NCBI GenBank assembly: GCA_937873145.1
Contig: CALMVK010000007.1
Coordinates: 853-64,852 of the forward strand
Direction of reading: 5' to 3'
Length of the DNA: 64,000 nt
Source of the DNA: an uncultured Granulicella sp.
GTDB lineage: Bacteria; Acidobacteriota; Terriglobia; Terriglobales; Acidobacteriaceae
Part shown: one piece after another, positions 2,075-44,733 of the stretch
Position numbering within the stretch: position 1 is the first letter of the stretch
Layout: each line of letters starts with the position of its first letter
Made by a program: the position numbers and the translations under genes
The notes under the pieces: generated by a model
What the model was told of the DNA's origin: nothing
The model's input: only the letters and a program-made list of their open reading frames with translations
Database searches by the model: none

Positions 2075-3793
2075 ATGCTTCGGCATCGGGCGAACGAACG
2101 CATGGTTCCTCTACTGATTTTTCTTGCCTTGATGAACTTCGGTTTCGGGCTTGCCTGGTGGCGTGTGCGCGCCAGGACTCGTAAGCTGCGCAGCGAACTT
2201 ATAGAGGCCCGTCAGGCCAGTGAGTCGCGGGAGTCTCTGCTGTTGCAGCGGTCGCAGCTGGACAGCCTCAAAGACGAGTTCATCTCTACCGTTTCGCATG
2301 AGCTGCGCACGCCGCTGACCAGCATTCGGGGCGCCTTGGGATTACTCTCGGCCGGGCGGATGGGCAACGTGGATGCCAAGGCACAGAATCTGCTGCGCAT
2401 CGCCGTGAACAATACGGACCGGTTGATCCGGTTGATCAACGACATTCTGGATCTGGAACGCATGCAGTCAGGCCGGGTGTCGCTGCAAATTCGCCGCTGC
2501 TCTTTACGTGAGCTGGCGCAACAGGCGATGGAAACTATGACGCCGCTGGCCGACTCCGCCGAGGTGCGGATCGAGCTGATTCTGAGGGCGTTGCCGGAGG
2601 CGATGTTCTTCGACGGCGATCCAGACCGGATGCTGCAGGTGCTGACGAATCTGCTCTCGAACGCGATTAAATTTTCGCCTCCGGAGACACGGATTGAGGT
2701 GCGCGTAGAGGCTGATGCTACGTCGATCGTGCTGCGTATCTCCGATCAGGGCCGCGGCATTCCTCTAGGATCGCTCGACCAGGTCTTCGATCGCTTTCAA
2801 CAGGTTGAGCTGGCGGACGCTCGCCAGAAAGGCGGCACGGGATTGGGGCTGGCCATCTGCCGAGCGATCATTCAGCAGCACAACGGCGCGATCTGGGCGG
2901 AATCGAACGAGCATGAAGGGCGCGGCGCGGGCACATCTCTCATTTTTACCCTGCCGCGCGTCAGCCGTGTGGAGGACATGACGGCGGCGCTGCCGGTCAG
3001 CATGCTGCCTCCCGGCAAGGCAACCATCCTGATCTGCGACGACGATGCCAGCATTCGTGCGGTGGTAGCGGAGAGTCTGACCGCGCAAGGGTACAGGGTG
3101 CTTGAGGCTGAGGACGGACAGCAGGCGCTGGCGCTGGCCAGAACAAACGACGTTCAGGCCATTCTGCTCGATCTATATATGCCCGGACTGACGGGGTGGG
3201 AGACGTTGCAGCAGCTCAAGGGGTCGCCTAGCACGGCGGAGATCCCGGTCGTCATCCTGTCGGTGCTGCCCCCCTCGTCGAGCTCGCGGGACAGCACTGC
3301 GCTCAGCCCGGCGCCCGAGGGTTGGGTGCAGAAGCCGTTTCATGAGCGTCTGCTGCTGATGGAGCTCTCGCGGGTGCTGCATACAGGCGAGGGACCGGCG
3401 TACGTGCTGCTCGTCGAGGACGACGCCGATCTCGCACAAGTGATTGTCGCCAGTTTTGAAGAGGCCGAAGTGCGCGTAGATCATGCCCAGACTCGTCAGC
3501 GTGCGATTGAGCTGTGCCTGATTGCGCGGCCCAATTTACTGATTCTGGATCTTGGGCTGGCGGAGGGAGACGGATTTTCCCTGGTGGATTGGCTGCGGCA
3601 GCAACCGGATCTGCGCAGCCTGCCGCTGGTGGTCTTTTCAGGCCGAGAGGTCTCCGAGGAAGAGATGTCGAAGCTGCGGCTGGGGCCGACGCAGTTCCTG
3701 ACCAAGGCCAAGGTCGAGGCGCAGGATGTGGAGGCATTGGTGCTGAAGATCGTGCGGAAACTGCACGCGCCTGCGGCTTCGTCAGCAGGATAA
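2075..3793 (+). CDS. hybrid histidine kinase (one TM, HisKA, HATPase, two receiver domains)
   Basis: H-box VSHELRTPL, N-box NLLSNAIKF, G-box GGTGLGL, receivers ICDDD..LLDLYMP and VEDD..ILDLGL. Confidence 0.92.
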   Translation: MLRHRANERMVPLLIFLALMNFGFGLAWWRVRARTRKLRSELIEARQASESRESLLLQRSQLDSLKDEFISTVSHELRTPLTSIRGALGLLSAGRMGNVDAKAQNLLRIAVNNTDRLIRLINDILDLERMQSGRVSLQIRRCSLRELAQQAMETMTPLADSAEVRIELILRALPEAMFFDGDPDRMLQVLTNLLSNAIKFSPPETRIEVRVEADATSIVLRISDQGRGIPLGSLDQVFDRFQQVELADARQKGGTGLGLAICRAIIQQHNGAIWAESNEHEGRGAGTSLIFTLPRVSRVEDMTAALPVSMLPPGKATILICDDDASIRAVVAESLTAQGYRVLEAEDGQQALALARTNDVQAILLDLYMPGLTGWETLQQLKGSPSTAEIPVVILSVLPPSSSSRDSTALSPAPEGWVQKPFHERLLLMELSRVLHTGEGPAYVLLVEDDADLAQVIVASFEEAEVRVDHAQTRQRAIELCLIARPNLLILDLGLAEGDGFSLVDWLRQQPDLRSLPLVVFSGREVSEEEMSKLRLGPTQFLTKAKVEAQDVEALVLKIVRKLHAPAASSAG

Positions 3794-3855
3794 GCGTTCG
3801 CCTGTTGCACTTTCGGGGGATGGGCGCAAGCTGAAGGAGCGGGAGAAGATGGATC

Positions 3856-4230
3856 GTGCGAAGTGTTCTGATCATTGACGACGAAGACGACATACGGGAA
3901 GTAGCTGCATTGTCTCTTGAGGCAACCTCGGATTGGGTCATCCACACGGCGGGTTCCGGCAGGGAGGGCATTGCCACTGCCGCGGCGGAGCAGCCGGACG
4001 CAATCCTGATGGATGTGATGATGCCTGGTATGGATGGTCCTACGGCCTTCCGCCAGATGCAGGAGAATATCCGCGTGTCGCACATTCCTGTAGTGCTGCT
4101 GACGGCCAAGGTTCAGGGTGTGGATCAACGGCGGTTTGCGGGTTTGGGGGTTGCCGGCGTGTTGTTTAAACCGTTTGATCCGATTACGTTGGCTGCGCAG
4201 CTTTCTCAAGTGCTGGGCTGGAACGACTAG
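3856..4230 (+). CDS. single-domain response regulator
   Basis: IIDDEDD, LMDVMMP, LLTA, KPF receiver motifs; GTG start. Confidence 0.9.
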   Translation: MRSVLIIDDEDDIREVAALSLEATSDWVIHTAGSGREGIATAAAEQPDAILMDVMMPGMDGPTAFRQMQENIRVSHIPVVLLTAKVQGVDQRRFAGLGVAGVLFKPFDPITLAAQLSQVLGWND

Positions 4231-4348
4231 TTTGCGGTTTTCCAACAAAATTTGAAGCGCAGGATACGTCAGGTTCCCTTGAGAGGGGGGGTCTTGCGGC
4301 TTCGTGCATCCGACTACGGATCGCCTGCGTTCTTTATGCAGAATTAAC

Positions 4349-4375
4349 TAAAGTTTTTTCTCAGAATGCCGATAA
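4349..4375 (+). promoter_or_regulatory. sigma28 (FliA) promoter upstream of Hpt gene
   Basis: TAAA-GTTTTTTCTCAGAAT(15 nt)-GCCGATAA, perfect consensus and spacing. Confidence 0.8.
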
Positions 4376-4424
4376 GAAACTAGAGATTGGAATTGAATGC
4401 GGCCGCCGGAATTTCGGACCGGTT

Positions 4425-4844
4425 ATGAACATTTTTCTTGCAAATCTGGAAAACTTTACTACTCTGGTGGAACCCCACATGTCACCTCACACCGTTAGTC
4501 TCGCGCAAGCCGAAACGACGAAGAATCTTATTGCTGGCATTTGGCGGCGTAATCGAACTCAGGTGCTCGCCCGCTTGGAACTCCTGGAGTGCACTGCGAC
4601 TGCTGTGGCTGCGGAGAGCCTAACCCTTCCGCTGCTTGAAGAAGCACTCTCCACTTCACATAAGCTGGCCGGTTCGCTGGGTATGTTCGGGTTTGGGGAA
4701 GGTACGCAGTTGGCCCGTGTGCTTGAACAGCAGCTTGAGAGCGCATTGCCCAATGCCGGGGTGATGCTGGTCACGATCGCTCGTCTGCGCGAAGTTCTCT
4801 TCCCGGACTCCCTGGGCGTACCCAGCCTAGTTACAAGCCACTAA
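4425..4844 (+). CDS. stand-alone Hpt phosphotransfer protein
   Basis: SHKLAGSLGMFG Hpt motif; start could be the later ATG near 4479. Confidence 0.82.
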   Translation: MNIFLANLENFTTLVEPHMSPHTVSLAQAETTKNLIAGIWRRNRTQVLARLELLECTATAVAAESLTLPLLEEALSTSHKLAGSLGMFGFGEGTQLARVLEQQLESALPNAGVMLVTIARLREVLFPDSLGVPSLVTSH

Positions 4845-7800
4845 GCTCCAAACTCCAGATGGATTGGAGTTGGACTGCGTGATCGAGAGATCGAGAAAGC
4901 TGCCGGCCGAAACTGTCACTGGACTGGATGCTGTGCAGCTTTGATTTTGTGAGACTTGGCAAGTGAGTGCCGAGTTCACCATGGACCCTGGAGTTCCTAC
5001 GCGCATCGTGACGGTGATGGTTGCCGCCTGCTGGGAGTACACCGTGAGCTGCGTAGCCGTGCAGCCCGTAGGGACCCAGGTAAGCACCGAGGCGACCTCA
5101 TTGGAGCTCTGATTGGTGTTGTTGATCGAGTAGTAGGTGGCGGCATAGGAGACCGAGTGGTACATCGAGGCAAACGGAATGCCGCTAGTCCCGGAACTGC
5201 TTGAAGTGCCTCCGCCGGAGCCTGTTCCAGCCGTTCCATTCGCTCCCTGAGGAATCGTAAAGTTCAGGATTGCCGAAGAAGCGCTGCCCACGTTTACCAC
5301 AGACGCGTTTGAGCCTGGTGCGCCCGTGGTGACGGATCCTATCTGCACCGAGGCAGGCGCGCCGGCCGGACCAGTCGGACCTGCTACCCCGGCGGCTCCG
5401 GTCGCTCCAGGGGTCCCGGCCGCGCCGGCGGCTCCGGCTGTGGCCAGCGTGCTCCAGAAGCTGGGGGAGTTGCCGGGTGCGTTGCCTGCATTGTTTGCCT
5501 GGGTCGAGATGTAGCTTGAGCCCTGAAACGTGACGGCTGCATTGAGTCCGTAGTTGGTGCTGGAGCTGTACGTTCCCTGGTAGATCAACCCGGGGGAGCC
5601 AGCCGGACCTGCAACTCCGGCTGGGCCTGCCGGGCCATTTGGGCCAGATGGACCAATAGGACCTGCAGGACCTGCACTCCCTGCCGGACCTGCGGGCCCG
5701 GTGGCGCCTGCCGGCCCCGGATACCCGGTAGGCCCTTGCAATCCCGTTGCTCCCTGGGGGCCAGCGGGTCCAGCTGCGCCAGATTGCACGAGCACACCCC
5801 AATAGATCGGGCTCAGATCAGGCTCGCGGCCAGAGTTTGCAGCCAAGGCAATATAGCCGCTTCCGCTATAGTTGACGGTATCTCCGACGGCATAGGAACT
5901 GCCGGTCAACCAGCCACCGCGAAAAGTGATCGGCGGGCCTTGTGGACCTGCGGGACCTTGGATTCCGTTGGCCCCGGTTGCCCCGGCGGCTCCCTGCTGG
6001 CCCGCCGGACCCGCAGCTCCCGCTGGGCCGATTGGTCCAACGGATCCAGTTGATCCGGTAGGCCCGACTGGGCCGGCAACGCCGGCGGGACCTGCTGGAC
6101 CTTGCGTGCCTGGGTACCCGGTGGGGCCTTGCAGTCCGGTTGCTCCCTGGGGGCCGGCGGATCCGGCGGAGCCTGCCTGTGCAAGAACTGCCCAGTAGAC
6201 CGGGCTGACATCGGGCTCCCGGCCGGAGTTTGCGACAAGCGCGATGTAACTGCCTCCGCTGTAGCTTACGGTGTCTCCGAGTAAGTAGGTAGAGCCGGTC
6301 AACCAGCCTCCGCGGAAGGTTACGGGAGGGCCTTGAGGGCCGGTTGGACCTTGCGCACCGTTGGTTCCGGGAGCGCCGGACGGCCCTTGCGGTCCCGCGG
6401 CTCCGGCTACGCCTGCCTGACCCTGAGCGACCAGCACAGCCCAGCTTGCGGAATTTTGGTCGGGAGTATTGCCGTGGTTACTCGCGACAAGGGAGACGTA
6501 CGTGGATCCGCCGTAGCCGACCGCATCCGCGACGGCGTAGTTTGTAGCTGAGCTGTAATTTCCTTTGTAGTTCACGACCGCCGGTCCTTGTGCACCTTGC
6601 GGTCCGGCATTGCCGGTAGGGCCGGGCAGGCCTTGCGCGCCTTGTGGGCCGGCTGGGCCAATGGATCCCGGAGAGCCAGTTGCTCCCGCTGCGCCGGGTG
6701 TGCCGGCGACCGCGAACAACGCCCAGGCCGCCGGGCTCTGGTCGGGAGTATTGCCGTGATTGCCGGCGATGAGCGAGACGTAGCCTGCGCCGTTGTACTG
6801 GACGCCGTCGGCCAGGGCGTAGTTTGCGCTGGACTGATAGGCCCCCTGGAAGGCTAGTCCTACTGGGCCTGCCGGTCCTTGCGGTCCCATGGGGCCACTC
6901 AGGCCCGTGGCTCCAGCGGTGCCCGGAATGCCTTGCGCGCCGGCCTGCCCTGGAATGCCTTGCAGGCCTTGATCGCCGCGCTCGCCGGGTGGTCCGACCG
7001 GTCCGAGGGCACCGGGAATGCCTTGCGGCCCGGGTGCTCCGGTGGTGCCGGTCGTTCCTTGCGGCCCTTGTGCGGTCAGGATGCCCCAGAAAGCGGGGCT
7101 TTGATCGGGCGTATTGCCATGATTGCCACCGGCCAGGGACGCCCAGCTTGAACCTTGCCACAAGACCACATCGCCGAGAACATAGTTGTGCACGGACTGA
7201 TAGACACCCTGATAGACGAGACCCGGAAGGCCTGGCGCACCATCGCGGCCGGCAGGCCCGGGATCGCCGGGAGTGCCGGCTGGACCCTGGATGCCGGCGG
7301 CACCTGCGGTTCCCTGAATGCCGGCTGGACCCGCGGGTCCAGAGTCGCCCATGGCGGCGAGCAGAATCCAATTCCCCGAGCCAAATCCGGGAGTGTTGCC
7401 GTGGTTGGAGGACGCGGTGGAAACGTAGCTGGAGCCGGCAAAGGCGACAACATCGTTCAAACCATAGTTGGTGATGGAGTTGTAGGTGCCTTCAAAGCCC
7501 AGACCCGGCAATCCTTTGATTCCCTGCGGTCCTGGTAAACCGATGGGACCGGCGGGACCGGTGGCTCCTGCAGGACCGGTAGCTCCGGCCACACCTGGTG
7601 GACCGGCCGCTCCGGCGACCCCTGCCAGCCCCGCGGGTCCGGTAATCCCTGGCGGTCCCGCTGGTCCCTGCGAGACGATCTGGAGATCGAGCGTTGGCTG
7701 GTGCCCGGTCAGGTCGTTCTCCTTACTATCGAACTGTACGGACGCGCTCCCTGCAGTCAGGGTGAAGCCAAAGTTGGTTGCAGGCGTGGTGATCCATCCC

Positions 7801-8195
7801 TGGACCAAGGCCGTGACATCGACGGAGACGTACTGGCCTGCCTGGCTGACGGAAAAGACCTGCGCCACGCTGCCGGTTGCCGGAAGAGTCTGATAGGTAA
7901 CACCGTACTCGCTCCAGGCTCCGTTCAGCGGCTGCAGACTGACCAGACCGGCGGTGTCGGCGCGATTGATGTAGAGACGCAGCGTAGCATGGGCGATCTG
8001 GGTGGACGTCGTTCCGGCGGGAAGGACGCCGAGATCGAACTGCAGCAGTCCGGTATAGCCTGCGCCGACGTTGATATTTGAGATCGCACCACTATTAACA
8101 GTAGGCCGGGCGGAGTTGACGTGAGCGTCGGCGACGAGGGTAGCCTCGACCGCTCGCGCGCGAGGGCACAACGCCGCGAGCAGCCCGAAGAGCAA
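4827..8195 (-). CDS. secreted collagen-like protein: N-terminal DNRLRE-like domain, Gly-X-Y tracts, seven CBM5/12-like modules
   Basis: 1122 aa ORF; GPAGP/GAQG triplets alternate with ~50 aa aromatic-rich modules; start uncertain (frame open to 8243). Confidence 0.85.
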   Translation of the reverse strand: MLFGLLAALCPRARAVEATLVADAHVNSARPTVNSGAISNINVGAGYTGLLQFDLGVLPAGTTSTQIAHATLRLYINRADTAGLVSLQPLNGAWSEYGVTYQTLPATGSVAQVFSVSQAGQYVSVDVTALVQGWITTPATNFGFTLTAGSASVQFDSKENDLTGHQPTLDLQIVSQGPAGPPGITGPAGLAGVAGAAGPPGVAGATGPAGATGPAGPIGLPGPQGIKGLPGLGFEGTYNSITNYGLNDVVAFAGSSYVSTASSNHGNTPGFGSGNWILLAAMGDSGPAGPAGIQGTAGAAGIQGPAGTPGDPGPAGRDGAPGLPGLVYQGVYQSVHNYVLGDVVLWQGSSWASLAGGNHGNTPDQSPAFWGILTAQGPQGTTGTTGAPGPQGIPGALGPVGPPGERGDQGLQGIPGQAGAQGIPGTAGATGLSGPMGPQGPAGPVGLAFQGAYQSSANYALADGVQYNGAGYVSLIAGNHGNTPDQSPAAWALFAVAGTPGAAGATGSPGSIGPAGPQGAQGLPGPTGNAGPQGAQGPAVVNYKGNYSSATNYAVADAVGYGGSTYVSLVASNHGNTPDQNSASWAVLVAQGQAGVAGAAGPQGPSGAPGTNGAQGPTGPQGPPVTFRGGWLTGSTYLLGDTVSYSGGSYIALVANSGREPDVSPVYWAVLAQAGSAGSAGPQGATGLQGPTGYPGTQGPAGPAGVAGPVGPTGSTGSVGPIGPAGAAGPAGQQGAAGATGANGIQGPAGPQGPPITFRGGWLTGSSYAVGDTVNYSGSGYIALAANSGREPDLSPIYWGVLVQSGAAGPAGPQGATGLQGPTGYPGPAGATGPAGPAGSAGPAGPIGPSGPNGPAGPAGVAGPAGSPGLIYQGTYSSSTNYGLNAAVTFQGSSYISTQANNAGNAPGNSPSFWSTLATAGAAGAAGTPGATGAAGVAGPTGPAGAPASVQIGSVTTGAPGSNASVVNVGSASSAILNFTIPQGANGTAGTGSGGGTSSSSGTSGIPFASMYHSVSYAATYYSINNTNQSSNEVASVLTWVPTGCTATQLTVYSQQAATITVTMRVGTPGSMVNSALTCQVSQNQSCTASSPVTVSAGSFLDLSITQSNSNPSGVWSLVACN

Positions 8196-40287: not shown

Positions 40288-40659
40288 ATGGCAAAGGCAA
40301 CGGAGATAGGTGCGGCGAAGCTTTTCCGGTGGGCGGAGATGGAGCCTGAACAGATGAATCCGCTGCTGACGCGGCAGTTTTGCTCGGGCGAGCAGGCGAT
40401 GATTGGGCGCGTAATGCTGAAGAAGGGATGCGTGGTGCCGGAGCACAGCCATCCCAACGAGCAGCTGGCGTATATCGTCACGGGTGCGCTGGAGTTTGTG
40501 ATCGGCGGCGTGACGCAGGTGGTGCGGGCGGGCGAGGTGCTGGTGATCCCGGCGAACGTGCCGCATGCGGCCACGGCGCTGGAAGATACCGAGGACCTGG
40601 ATCTGTTTGCTCCGCCGCGGCAGGACTGGATCGACCAGAACGACAGCTATCTGCGCTAA
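40288..40659 (+). CDS. cupin domain protein
   Basis: VPEHSHPNEQ, IPANVPHAA, DLFAPPRQDW. Confidence 0.85.
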   Translation: MAKATEIGAAKLFRWAEMEPEQMNPLLTRQFCSGEQAMIGRVMLKKGCVVPEHSHPNEQLAYIVTGALEFVIGGVTQVVRAGEVLVIPANVPHAATALEDTEDLDLFAPPRQDWIDQNDSYLR

Positions 40660-40669
40660 GCGGTTGGCG

Positions 40670-40940
40670 AGACCATTTTACCTTCAGGTGTAGTTGCCGA
40701 ATCGCAGTCTGAGCCATGCTGTTGCCTCTTGAGCGGTAATGGTGTTGATTGCGTGTGCGGTGGCAGTTCGAGCTGCGGCATGGCTCTGGCGGCGAGGGCG
40801 CGCAGCCTGGCCTTGAGCTTGGACCAGGCTTTTTCGATCGGGTTGAGGTCGGGCGAATAGGGCGCGAGCCATCCCTCCATGCTCAACCTCAACTCAGAGC
40901 CTGCAAGAATCGAGGCCTGTACCCCACGGTAAATTGGTCT
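40670..40940 (-). mobile_element. internally deleted IS630-family element (MITE-like) with both terminal inverted repeats
   Basis: TIRs AGACCATTTTACC (40670-82) and rc AGACCAATTTACC (40928-40); frameshifted transposase tail PYSPDLNPIEKAWSKLK / ITAQEATAWLRLRFG. Confidence 0.82.
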
Positions 40941-41856
40941 AGCGCTTCTGCTTTCCAACCTTTGCAGCTGTGTTCGGCTTCTGCGACGACAGATCAGCCA
41001 TGGCCGCGCGGAGACGTAGCACGGCTGACGTATGAACTTGCGAAACACGGGACTCAACCACTCCAAGCGTCAGTCCGATCTCCTTCATCGTCAGCTCTTC
41101 GAAGTAGTAGAGAGTAAGCACCATTCTCTCCTTCTCTGGCAATTCTTCTATGGCTTCTGCGAGCCGCTGCTTCATCTCTCCCTTGAGACATCTAAAAAGG
41201 GGTTCGTCTTCCACTGAGGTAGGAATGTAAGCCAGTTCCTCATCACCAGAATCTTCCGAGCGCTCCAGGTGGAGTGTACCGATCTCCAAACCTTTAAGAT
41301 CACCCAGCAGCACCTGATACTCCGACAGAGAGACTTCGAGCTCCGTAGCAATCTCCTGCTCTACAGGTACCCGGCCTAGCCGCTTCGTCGTGCTCCGAAT
41401 CGCTTCTTCTACGGCCCGACCCTTGCGACGGAGCTCACGCGGACCCCAATCTACGCTTCGCAGGGAATCAAGGATTGCGCCACGGATGCGGAACTGCGCG
41501 TAGCTCTTGAACTGAACTTGTTTGGTGTAATCGAACTTGGCAAGCGCGTCGATCAAACCTACAATTCCTGCCGAAACGAGCTCTTCGAGCTCCACGTGCT
41601 GCGGAAGGCGTTCATGGATGTTTCTCGCAACGTAACGCACCGTCGGAAGATGCTCCATCAGCAATTGCTCGTGTTCTGCGGCAGTGAGTGCACTAGCAAC
41701 GGTCTCTGCTGGCTTGCGCCGCGACTGTTTGGCAGCAGAGAAACCAGAGACTGTCGGAAGCGCCGTTACTGCCTCTTCGAAAACCAGCCCGCACATGGCT
41801 GCATTCTGATCCTGCATCCCCAACATGGCTACCGGCAGTACGTTTCCCATTTCCAT
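40939..41856 (-). CDS. fliA: FliA/WhiG family sigma factor (sigma28)
   Basis: HERLPQHVELEELVSAG, YAQFRIRGAILDSLR, LTMKEIGLTLGVVESRVSQVH. Confidence 0.92.
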   Translation of the reverse strand: MEMGNVLPVAMLGMQDQNAAMCGLVFEEAVTALPTVSGFSAAKQSRRKPAETVASALTAAEHEQLLMEHLPTVRYVARNIHERLPQHVELEELVSAGIVGLIDALAKFDYTKQVQFKSYAQFRIRGAILDSLRSVDWGPRELRRKGRAVEEAIRSTTKRLGRVPVEQEIATELEVSLSEYQVLLGDLKGLEIGTLHLERSEDSGDEELAYIPTSVEDEPLFRCLKGEMKQRLAEAIEELPEKERMVLTLYYFEELTMKEIGLTLGVVESRVSQVHTSAVLRLRAAMADLSSQKPNTAAKVGKQKR

Positions 41857-41927
41857 TGCTTTTCTCCTCACAGGTGTGTCCTGTATGTGGTTTGCGCTTG
41901 ACCGCGCATCTGAACACTTAGGAGAAG

Positions 41928-41943
41928 AGCAAGCGAAGGGCCA
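41928..41943 (-). promoter_or_regulatory. sigma54 -24/-12 promoter of fliA
   Basis: TGGCCC-TTCGC-TTGCT (GG-N10-GC) ~70 nt before fliA, with an AT-rich tract upstream. Confidence 0.65.
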
Positions 41944-42251: not shown

Positions 42252-43448
42252 TTACCTCCGGCGCAGGACAATCTCTGCAGGCCCGATCTCCGGCCGATCC
42301 TCAGCCAGGATTGAACCTCGCTCGAGAACATGCATCAGCTCTCTGACATTTCCTGGCCACGAATAAGCAGTGAGAAGATCCAAGGCTGCAGAAGCTACCC
42401 TCTTTCTCGGCATCTGTTTTGCCAGCTCATCCAAGAAGAAGTCGACCAGGCTGGGCAGATCCTCAATTCGCTCGCGAAGAGCTGGTACAGTCAGCGGAAA
42501 CACTGCCAGACGGTGATACAGATCTAAGCGGAACGCTTTCTCTTCGGCCCGCTGCTCAAGCGGCTGGTGCGTGGCCGCGATAACTCGCACATCGACGCGA
42601 GCCGTTTCATTGTCCCCAACACGCTGAAGTTCGCCGCACTCCAGGAAGCGCAGCATTTTGGCCTGCAACGCCAGCGGCATCTCACCGATCTCGTCTAAGA
42701 ACAGAGTTCCACCATGAGCGGCCTCGATTCGACCTACGCGTGACTGAACAGCCCCTGTAAAAGCTCCTCGCGTGTGTCCGAAGAGCTCGGCTTCTAACAG
42801 AGACTCCGGGATAGCGGCGCAGTTCAGAACCACAAGGGGCTTCGTCGAGCGGGAACTCAATCGATGCAGCGCCTTCGCCACTACCTCTTTTCCAGTGCCA
42901 GTCTCGCCTTCAATTAAGACGCTCGTCGAGCGTGGCGCAACCAGGCGAATCATTCTCGATAGCTCGAGCATGGGAGCACTCTCGCCGATCATCTCCGGTA
43001 GACCGACGCGGACGGGTGTGGGAGCGAGCCGTGCAATGGAAGTTGAACCATGTCGCTGCGCCTTCGCTACCGTCGGTGCCATCTGCTGAGCTTCGCGCAG
43101 TGCATGCAGCAGCTCATGACGACGCGGACTCTTCGCCTGGCAACGAATGCGGTCTGCGTTGCCGTCCGCCGAGAGAACCTCCATCCCCGGGTACATCAGA
43201 CACATTTGCTGGGCGAACTCACCAGCCTCCAGGTCCGGAAGCCACTCGTCTAGAAGCAGCACCTCTGGCTGTTCGGCTTCCACCAAGGCCATGGCTTCCG
43301 CACCCCCGCCAGCTTCTCGCACTCTCCAACGAAGGGTAGTTAAGGCAGCGGTGACGCGATGTCTCAGAGCAAGATCGGCTCCTGCTATGACAGCGCTCCG
43401 TGTCGCCACAGAATCTTCATGGGTTGCCAAAGCGCTTGAAGTCTCCAT
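42252..43448 (-). CDS. sigma54 activator (receiver + AAA+) without C-terminal HTH
   Basis: LLDEWLPD, GETGTGKE, GAFTGA, LFLDEIG, WPGNVREL; ends about 20 aa later. Confidence 0.9.
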   Translation of the reverse strand: METSSALATHEDSVATRSAVIAGADLALRHRVTAALTTLRWRVREAGGGAEAMALVEAEQPEVLLLDEWLPDLEAGEFAQQMCLMYPGMEVLSADGNADRIRCQAKSPRRHELLHALREAQQMAPTVAKAQRHGSTSIARLAPTPVRVGLPEMIGESAPMLELSRMIRLVAPRSTSVLIEGETGTGKEVVAKALHRLSSRSTKPLVVLNCAAIPESLLEAELFGHTRGAFTGAVQSRVGRIEAAHGGTLFLDEIGEMPLALQAKMLRFLECGELQRVGDNETARVDVRVIAATHQPLEQRAEEKAFRLDLYHRLAVFPLTVPALRERIEDLPSLVDFFLDELAKQMPRKRVASAALDLLTAYSWPGNVRELMHVLERGSILAEDRPEIGPAEIVLRRR

Positions 43449-43460
43449 ATTTTCCTGCCA

Positions 43461-43709
43461 TCATCCGTCTTCGTCCAAATACTGCTGCATTGATCGAATG
43501 TGGACGATCATCCGCTCACACTGCTGCAATCCCTCCTCAACAGCGCGCCGCATCTCTACCTGCTCCCACACGCCGCCCGGAGTATGCTGCGCGGCCAGAA
43601 AGAGTCTGCACTGTAAAGCTGTTAGCGGCTGACTCAGATCGTGTAGGGCATCCTGCATCCAGTCTTGCAGGGTTTTGTCCGGCGTCGATTGCCCAAAAGT
43701 GCTATGCAT
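43461..43709 (-). CDS. stand-alone HisKA/DHp-like protein, 82 aa
   Basis: DALHDLSQPLTALQ H-box, helical, no ATPase domain; ATG overlaps upstream stop. Confidence 0.7.
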   Translation of the reverse strand: MHSTFGQSTPDKTLQDWMQDALHDLSQPLTALQCRLFLAAQHTPGGVWEQVEMRRAVEEGLQQCERMIVHIRSMQQYLDEDG

Positions 43710-44508
43710 AGGCACTCGTCTCGGCACGATCGCGCGCCTTTGCCAATCCATTCGCACCGGTTGCCTGCAGGTGAAGCGGGGCTGGCAGAAAACTCTGAAA
43801 GGACTCATGGGGATGGAGGGAGATTGCGTAGCCCTCTCCACGCACTGTTTCGATCACCCGGTCTGCTGGTTCAGACGAAACAGGCTTATTATCTATAACT
43901 TGCGCGAGCTTTTTCCGAAGATAGTTGATGTACACGTCCACCACGTTCGTTCCGGATGGAGGTGCCGACTGCCAGACCTCGCGGAGCAGTTCGCTGCGTC
44001 CACAAGGCCGGCCGCGCGCGAGGACAAGATATTCGAGCAGCGAAAACTCCTTGGACGTTAACTCGACGGCTCGGCCTTGCCGCTTCACGGTTCGCTGGAT
44101 ACGATCCATTTCGAGGTCACCGACACAAAGAGTCGAGGCAGCCGATTGATGACTTCGCCGAAGCAGCGCGCGGCAACGTGCCGTCAGTTCACTAAAGCTG
44201 AAAGGCTTAGGAAGACAATCGTCGGCACCTAGATTCAGGCAATGTACACGAGACTCCACGCCATTTCTTCCAGTCAGCACGAGCACAGAGGTTCCAGGAC
44301 ATTGTCCCTGCATGCGCTGCAGTATTTCAAGCCCATCCATTTCAGGTAAACCCAAATCCAAAACGAGCAGATCCGGTGCGTGTAACAACAAAGACGCCAG
44401 CCCCGTGCGGCCGTTACTCTCCAGCTCTACCTGATGCTTCTCTAAAGTCAGACCTTTCGCAATGAAATGTCCAAGAGCAAGGTCGTCCTCAAGAATCAGT
44501 ATGCGCAT
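43702..44508 (-). CDS. OmpR-family response regulator
   Basis: ILEDD, LVLDLGLP, GADDCLPKPF, LTSKEFSLL, NVVDVYINYLRKK, TVRGEGY. Confidence 0.92.
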   Translation of the reverse strand: MRILILEDDLALGHFIAKGLTLEKHQVELESNGRTGLASLLLHAPDLLVLDLGLPEMDGLEILQRMQGQCPGTSVLVLTGRNGVESRVHCLNLGADDCLPKPFSFSELTARCRALLRRSHQSAASTLCVGDLEMDRIQRTVKRQGRAVELTSKEFSLLEYLVLARGRPCGRSELLREVWQSAPPSGTNVVDVYINYLRKKLAQVIDNKPVSSEPADRVIETVRGEGYAISLHPHESFQSFLPAPLHLQATGANGLAKARDRAETSAYA

Positions 44509-44733
44509 GCTTTCCTCCATCAGTCCAACAGTTCGGGGTAATGACGGTCCGCGTTTTTGCTGTCAACGTGGCCTGTCATAACCATCAGGCTTCCAAACCT
44601 GCGGAACAAGCAGAAACGTCTCACTTTCCTCATAGCCATTCCAAAATGGAACCAACCGAGCCGAAACGACTCGCTTCTAGCTGTTTCTTCTCCAACTTCT
44701 GTGGGAGAAGGTGCAAAAAGCCCGAACTTTTTC

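Follow-up and report, generated by a model that had tools for sequence, protein, structure and literature searches.

The gene examined here encodes an 82-aa protein and lies in a 64,000-nucleotide stretch of DNA from an uncultured Granulicella sp. (hereafter the window), which contains the following features.

43461..43709, minus strand: DHp-only gene, 82 codons plus stop (open reading frame and translation)
43702..43709, minus strand: start/stop overlap of 8 nt, ATGCATAG, putative coupling to the regulator gene
43593..43682, minus strand: predicted helix 1 (residues 10-39), which bears the H-box (AlphaFold2)
43614..43646, minus strand: H-box LHDLSQPLTAL, residues 22-32 (sequence read directly)
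43641-43643 and 43629-43631, minus strand: codons of His23 and of Gln27 (position H+4), respectively (sequence read directly)
43467..43571, minus strand: predicted helix 2 (residues 47-81), containing the conserved stretch QQCERM (AlphaFold2)
43702..44520, minus strand: OmpR-type response regulator with Response_reg and Trans_reg_C (Pfam)
42252..43448, minus strand: sigma54 activator with a degenerate receiver and AAA+, without a DNA-binding domain (Pfam)
41929..41943, minus strand: sigma54-type -24/-12 element TGGCCC-N5-TTGC, ~60-75 nt 5' of fliA
40939..41871, minus strand: fliA, encoding a FliA/WhiG-family sigma factor (NCBIfam TIGR02479, 238 bits against a cut-off of 189.6; synteny)
40659-41066, minus strand: fragment of a DDE_3 (IS630-like) transposase, directly 3' of fliA
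2075-4844, plus strand: sensor-less hybrid kinase (HisKA-HATPase_c-REC-REC, 572 aa), single-domain regulator (124 aa) and Hpt protein (139 aa; 4425-4844)
4827-8195, minus strand: 1122-aa protein with nine collagen triple-helix repeat stretches, CBM96 and CBM_5_12

The ATG of the DHp gene (43707-43709) overlaps the TAG of the regulator gene (43702-43704) by the 8 nt listed above, and the identical overlap was found in the orthologous locus L004. The DHp gene thus appears to be translationally coupled to the upstream OmpR-type regulator gene. The initial annotation had described a coupled start/stop between two flanking genes; the ATG of the sigma54 activator (43448) follows the DHp stop codon after 12 nt. 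A 126-aa reading from a GTG at 43841 was rejected because orthologues carry in-frame stops 2-22 codons 5' of the conserved start, which bound the protein length to ~81-104 aa. Translation gave the 82-aa product with LHDLSQPLTAL that had been described at the outset, and its lack of an ATP-binding domain was borne out: Pfam revealed no HATPase_c in the protein, and only the 12 nt separate it from the next gene. The Hpt profile (PF01627) did not match at E <= 1, nor did the kinase-inhibitor families Sda, KipI and FixT in Pfam and NCBIfam, where HisKA was the sole match.

Searched alone, the window protein matched Pfam HisKA (PF00512) with E 1.7e-3 and 18.8 bits, below the gathering cut-off of 26.9 bits. 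Most short family members (51/67) matched HisKA singly at E <= 0.01, with a best value of 6.9e-7, several long orthologues exceeded the cut-off, and the family profile aligned with the DHp of two-domain orthologues at an hhalign probability of 98.8% (E 1e-16). Because of the 51 single matches and the hhalign alignment, the likeness to a kinase H-box goes beyond chance, and homology to HisKA is established at the level of sequence. AlphaFold2, supplied with an alignment of 67 sequences, predicted a two-helix hairpin (residues 10-39 and 47-81) with a mean pLDDT of 85.9, in agreement with the helical character assigned initially. Foldseek with this 82-aa model returned generic helical hairpins only (best E 0.65), a bare hairpin being unclassifiable in this way. 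The weak profile matches in the PDB were DHp domains of kinases (VicK-like, FixL chimeras, QseC and EnvZ domain A), and the EnvZ domain A chains 1JOY and 5B1N aligned weakly with the family profile at E about 0.07. The best profile match, PDB 3MAY chain A (E 9e-4), extended over 44 residues only and was judged to reflect chance, not homology. 3MAY is a 101-aa 'possible exported protein' that has the string LHALSQPLTDL in common with the H-box. As judged from these comparisons, the 82-aa protein consists solely of the DHp hairpin of a HisKA-type kinase. A DHp hairpin of ~67-80 residues with an H-box also constitutes EnvZ domain A and HK853 deprived of its CA domain. Those are laboratory truncations that act mainly as phosphatases, whereas the DHp-only family is natural and selected.

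A word-indexed search detected 14 orthologues of 77-94 aa with 56-82% identity, in all of which His23 was invariant. An exhaustive phmmer search over 1.8 billion representatives yielded 82 matches at E <= 1e-3, which comprised 78 stand-alone proteins (49-146 aa), one two-domain form of 222 aa and the three giant 'multi-stretch' matches P0019, P0081 and P0084, which were discarded as tandem-repeat junk without an H-box. A profile search extended the family to 586 clusters of relatives of 45-143 aa, whose source labels were only 'hypothetical protein', 'signal transduction histidine kinase' and 'C4-dicarboxylate-specific signal transduction histidine kinase'. Conservation of the His, proposed in the initial annotation as a check, was found in 196 of 198 distinct small members. 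Gln at H+4 and Pro at H+5 were kept in 198/198, so that the phosphatase motif H-E/D-x-x-T/N, with Thr or Asn at H+4, is absent throughout. Position H+1 gave a first impression of being relaxed, which was dropped after the larger sample revealed Asp or Glu in 187/198. The docking helix as a whole hardly varies.

The DHp-only clade has three conserved cysteines. Cys occupies H+3 in 152/198 (77%) and H+11 in 185/198 (93%) of the small members, and the Cys of the 'EC.R' motif in helix 2 is present in ~90% of the short-family alignment A2. Cys64 and Arg66 of the 82-aa protein are nearly invariant, and Cys34 and Cys64 are the conserved cysteines of the window protein. The long forms described below share only the H+11 Cys, and two of the three cysteines are missing from the closest relatives of the window gene. 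H+11 matches a receiver-specificity position of HK853. A redox or metal role of these cysteines is conceivable.

Pairwise comparison of the window gene and its six closest orthologues gave dN/dS of 0.10-0.34 with dS up to 1.8, and the short form was present in nine of ten sampled genomes of the window's genus. The DHp-only gene is real and under purifying selection. Hundreds of Acidobacteria from soil retain the protein under selection.

The two flanking genes differ in the state of their receivers. The OmpR-type regulator gene lies 5' of the DHp gene in 63/73 short-form and 26/26 long-form loci, and its acid pocket, Asp, Thr/Ser and Lys were all kept in 87/87 orthologues. Since every catalytic receiver residue is retained, the regulator is evidently a working phospho-acceptor and should be phosphorylated by something. 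The activator gene lies 3' of the DHp gene in 60/73 short-form and 16/26 long-form loci. Its receiver match is weak (E 3e-4), and the receiver carries Ser or Ala at both acid-pocket positions, with Thr replaced by Asp in 56/62 and Lys by Arg in 37/62, while the Asp is kept in 61/62. Canonical Mg-dependent phosphorylation of this receiver is unlikely. The initial annotation had placed the gene between two receiver-containing genes; both receiver matches are present, but the downstream one is degenerate. A relay between the two flanking receivers was considered and is unlikely because the activator's receiver has lost both residues of the Mg-binding acid pocket. The same degeneracy makes a Spo0F-Spo0B-Spo0A-type relay between the flanking genes unlikely.

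In at least seven loci of one subclade (L046, L047, L051, L053, L065, L066 and L076), both the regulator and the activator are missing, and the DHp gene lies between a divergent MFS transporter gene and fliA. These genomes encode no orthologous regulator elsewhere, only a 52-57% identical paralogue with its own full-length kinase. The H-box is nevertheless invariant in this subclade, in which dN/dS reaches 0.2-0.8. Since regulator and activator are absent yet the H-box is invariant, the DHp protein of these genomes must, on this reading of the loci, use partners encoded elsewhere. Four further loci (L038, L042, L048 and L093) place the acidobacterial cassette on contigs filed as Rhodanobacteraceae, Lichenicola and Janthinobacterium metagenome-assembled genomes; these contigs were probably mis-binned rather than horizontally transferred.

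The origin of the protein was traced in a set of loci that comprised 80 from a one-genome-per-species scan, nearly all of them in Acidobacteriaceae (Granulicella and Terriglobus), and ~40 more from family- and class-level genome searches; synteny was compared across about 100 loci of Acidobacteriaceae and Terriglobia. Two lengths were observed. In ~73 loci, the protein stops 1-23 residues past the hairpin (in a few up to 52), and in 26 loci it continues for 137-178 residues. The additional domain of the long forms in Acidobacteriaceae has no Pfam match or matches HATPase_c at E about 0.02 only, and as a degenerate CA domain it is devoid of the N-box Asn and the G1 glycines, with the G2 box deleted. 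A model of the long form showed the DHp-CA core fold (pLDDT 82.5), for which Foldseek retrieved DivL, HprS, HK853 and CusS at about E 1e-11, with DivL the best (E 1.2e-11). In other families of the class, regulator-adjacent homologues carry HATPase_c with 74.8, 50.3, 44.2, 38.7 and 29.7 bits; two further regulator-adjacent homologues from these families had no HATPase_c match.

The distant orthologues are sensor-less kinases with DHp and HATPase_c, most Acidobacteriaceae have a DHp with a degenerate CA domain, and the DHp-only state is found in Granulicella, Terriglobus and their relatives. Because the distant orthologues possess a true HATPase_c, the DHp protein is in this sense kinase-derived, and the orthologues form a living series from a sensor-less kinase through a pseudokinase with a dead CA domain to a bare DHp. 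In the regulator tree, the short forms fall mostly within one large clade; parsimony gave four changes of length state, at least two of them on well-supported branches. A clear independent loss is seen in L011 (99 aa): its sister is L012 (242 aa), and the two have a distinctive H-box in common. A 100-aa form occurs in another family (L125). On this tree, the CA domain was lost at least twice.

The wider context of the cassette is flagellar. The conserved gene order is regulator, DHp gene, activator (in some loci absent) and fliA. A gap of 380 nt separates the activator gene from fliA, and the sigma54-type element of the window, TGGCCC-N5-TTGC, recurs at the equivalent position in all six of the closest orthologous loci, the background rate being 0.05 per 570 nt; window-wide, the number of sigma54-type matches equals chance expectation. 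Granulicella paludicola (L070) has a near-perfect TGGCAC-N5-TTGCA, and the strict pattern is missing from most loci beyond the closest ones. Downstream of fliA lie fliF in 17 loci, fliG in 14, fliH in seven, rod genes in ten and flgM in seven. FlhA and sigma54 are encoded in the window's genome. Among 101 genomes of the family, the DHp gene was present in 29, FlhA in 45 and both in 19, while ten had the gene without FlhA; FlhA thus occurred in 19/29 genomes with the DHp gene against 26/72 without it. In 14 of the 19 co-occurring genomes, the two genes lie 16-24 kb apart on one contig. The association of the DHp gene with flagella is real but loose, and the cassette appears, from gene order, to be a regulatory module heading flagellar genes. 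In G092 (which contains L011) and in G296, FlhA is split into several frames; these are either error-prone assemblies or genomes with decaying flagellar genes, and calls of absence or truncation in them need care.

In the window itself, no flagellar structural gene adjoins the cassette. Because fliF-fliG-fliH follow fliA in many relatives and a transposase fragment is found here, a rearrangement probably split the cassette from the flagellar genes in the window's lineage. In architecture and context, the cassette is likened to FlgS/FlgR of Helicobacter and Campylobacter, which also combines a sensor-less soluble kinase lineage with a sigma54 activator devoid of a DNA-binding domain, in a position 5' of flagellar genes and fliA (here often before fliF-fliG-fliH). 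In contrast to FlgS/FlgR, the CA domain and the activator's acid pocket have been lost here, and an extra OmpR-type regulator is the conserved partner.

We consider the DHp protein to be best explained, with a probability of roughly 0.4, as a histidine phosphotransfer protein of the ChpT/Spo0B/PhyT kind that has been cut down to its DHp. The ancestor would have been a sensor-less kinase, cognate to the neighbouring OmpR-type regulator, whose CA domain first became degenerate and was later deleted. Two hairpins may dimerise into a four-helix bundle, which would dock on receivers and exchange a phosphoryl group with their Asp through a phosphorylated His23. In this way, the protein could connect a phosphodonor encoded at another site, such as the receiver of a hybrid kinase or a single-domain regulator, with the OmpR-type regulator of the fliA cassette, and the transfer would probably be bidirectional. 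The hybrid kinase, single-domain regulator and Hpt protein at 2075-4844 form a candidate donor system that could supply phosphate to orphan receivers or to the DHp protein.

Several observations bear on the phosphotransfer reading. Autophosphorylation cannot be what the His is needed for, since the protein has no CA domain, and the invariance of the H-box despite the lost regulator fits a hub that serves receivers encoded elsewhere. To our knowledge, all three characterised kinase descendants that retain the His and have a degenerate CA domain (Spo0B, ChpT and PhyT) are phosphotransferases. ChpT, Spo0B and PhyT keep a CA-like domain, and in ChpT this domain helps to bind receivers. Like them, the window protein has the conserved His on a DHp, here a predicted one, and no functional ATP-binding domain, but the CA-like domain that they retain is absent. 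Counted against phosphotransfer is the activator's receiver, which cannot be a canonical acceptor.

The comparison with ChpT and Spo0B in the initial annotation proved apt, because syntenic orthologues in other genera consist of a DHp and a degenerate CA domain. ChpT of Caulobacter and Brucella is likewise a descendant of a HisKA-type kinase with a phosphorylatable His on its DHp and lost ATP binding, and the long-form orthologues have the same architecture of DHp and degenerate CA. The window protein differs from ChpT in the absence of any CA-like domain, no sequence relationship was detected beyond HisKA, and the context is fliA and flagellar genes instead of CtrA. Spo0B of Bacillus likewise carries its His on a helical hairpin and passes phosphate from one receiver to another, a function that is putative here; unlike the window protein, Spo0B retains an alpha/beta domain at its C terminus and lacks a HisKA-like H-box. 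PhyT/PhyP of the Sphingomonas general stress response resembles the present case in its gene position beside the regulator, its degenerate ATPase domain and its conserved His (PMC5898713), but PhyT is anchored in the membrane, is of the HWE/HisKA2 type (HRxxN motif) and retains a CA-like domain.

A rival explanation, which we hold to be unlikely, is that the protein serves the adjacent OmpR-type regulator as a dedicated phosphatase or as a phosphate sink by back-transfer; the DHp bundle would dock on the phosphorylated regulator, with His23 and Gln27 positioning the attacking water. The phosphatase reaction is the sole activity of a bifunctional kinase that does not need the CA domain, so repeated loss of this domain would require no new partner if only the phosphatase function stayed, and the translational coupling with the regulator gene points in the same direction. 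A CA-less EnvZ fragment is said, in work by Zhu et al. from 2000, to act as a phosphatase. HK853 without its CA domain still dephosphorylates its regulator, as cited in PMC7005713, but the CA domain and nucleotide strongly stimulate the phosphatase activity of HK853 and EnvZ (PMC7005713). In HisKA kinases, the acid at H+1 is needed for the kinase reaction only and the Thr or Asn at H+4 for the phosphatase reaction only (PMC3510030), and H+4 is, together with the Pro, the most conserved position of the present family. The residue here is Gln, however, and replacement of Asn by Gln at H+4 of CrdS (N375Q) abolished phosphatase activity to below the measurable level while phosphotransfer was kept (PMC3510030). 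We had read Gln(H+4) at first as a phosphatase signature; the CrdS result contradicts this, and the residue does not discriminate, since alignment revealed Gln as the natural residue at H+4 of FixL-type kinases. Because the Gln is also ancestral in this lineage, it is not an adaptation to phosphotransfer either.

The conservation of the His does not separate phosphotransfer from dephosphorylation, because the phosphorylatable His also aids the phosphatase reaction (PMC7005713). The H-box is invariant even in loci without the regulator, which argues against a phosphatase dedicated to it. PhyP/PhyT, which had been presumed to be a phosphatase on like grounds, proved to be a phosphotransferase and exhibited no phosphatase activity in vitro (PMC5898713).

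It is quite unlikely that the protein is a non-catalytic binder of receivers, that is, a DivL-like pseudokinase reduced to its DHp that sequesters, scaffolds or allosterically controls the regulator, the pseudo-receiver or both; such a binder might couple them to flagellar assembly, as FlgS couples to the export apparatus, or affect the output of FliA. The loss of catalytic residues from both the CA domain and the activator's receiver suggests a shift away from phosphoryl chemistry, and the DHp gene persists beside fliA in the at least seven loci that have neither regulator nor activator. PhyT, besides its transfer activity, forms a complex with the unphosphorylated regulator and restrains it through binding (PMC5898713). 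Among the structural matches to the long form, the best was the pseudokinase DivL of Caulobacter, in which a kinase fold is used without kinase activity. DivL and the DHp-only family are opposites in one respect: DivL has a CA domain but another residue in place of the His, and the DHp-only family has the His but no CA domain. The His in 99% of the members, the near invariance of the whole H-box and the retention of all phospho-chemistry residues in the OmpR-type regulator argue against a purely non-catalytic role.

It is very improbable that the protein is one half of a split kinase, in which a CA domain from another gene would phosphorylate His23 in trans and the protein would then phosphorylate the regulator. 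Separate DHp and CA domains of EnvZ reportedly reconstitute kinase activity in vitro (as attributed to Park et al., 1998), and the acidic residue at H+1 in 187/198 members is the one needed for kinase activity only in HisKA (PMC3510030). On the other side, the neighbourhood of the cassette contains no conserved gene for a partner CA domain, and the ATP-binding motifs disappeared before the CA domain as a whole was deleted, so that kinase activity was given up and not relocated.

Inhibition of a full-length kinase through heterodimerisation of DHp domains, as a dominant-negative microprotein, had been offered as an option in the initial annotation and is highly improbable. The small size and the missing CA domain recall engineered dominant-negative fragments, and the inhibition of GacS by RetS, which involves DHp contacts, is a precedent. 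No close DHp paralogue with which to heterodimerise is encoded in the genome, however (the next best DHp is at E about 0.8), and such an inhibitor would not require the invariant His, Gln and Pro. Least credible of all is a truncated kinase gene that no longer functions and has stayed open by chance, which would accord with the two-domain kinases among the distant orthologues and the dN/dS of 0.2-0.8 in the regulator-less subclade but not with the dN/dS of 0.10-0.34 (dS up to 1.8) in the window's clade, the short form in 9/10 genomes of the genus, the 586 clusters of intact small relatives or the conserved translational coupling. It had been anticipated that full-length kinases among the orthologues would make the gene a remnant; the distant orthologues are indeed HATPase_c kinases, and the consequence drawn from them did not hold, given purifying selection and the nine genomes of ten.

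Among the papers searched, none described natural DHp-only proteins, and no source had a specific name for the family, only hypothetical or generic histidine-kinase labels. We suggest, tentatively and with some doubt, that among the kinase-derived phosphorelay components known so far, this widespread natural family of ~80-residue DHp-only proteins may be the smallest. Such a protein would be a hub for His phosphotransfer, or a phosphate valve, that suffices by itself and serves receivers in the flagellar sigma54/sigma28 cascade of Acidobacteria. In this family, the path from kinase through pseudokinase to DHp is extant, the CA domain was lost repeatedly, and three cysteines (H+3, H+11 and helix 2) were acquired that might permit redox sensing. 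Spo0B, ChpT, PhyT and DivL are known one by one and have kept the dead catalytic domain, whereas here a whole family has dropped the CA domain. The intermediates that survive in related genera amount to a natural experiment on what a lone DHp bundle is able to do and on how two-component proteins change their roles. For annotation, the finding means that domain censuses either overlook DHp-only genes, labelled 'hypothetical protein', or list them among the histidine kinases, a role that is impossible without a CA domain. The cassette of OmpR-type regulator, DHp protein, sigma54 activator and fliA would head the flagellar genes in a major soil phylum that has received little study, and it is open to testing because cultured strains carry it, namely Granulicella rosea DSM 18704, G. 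paludicola DSM 22464 and Terriglobus albidus DSM 26559.
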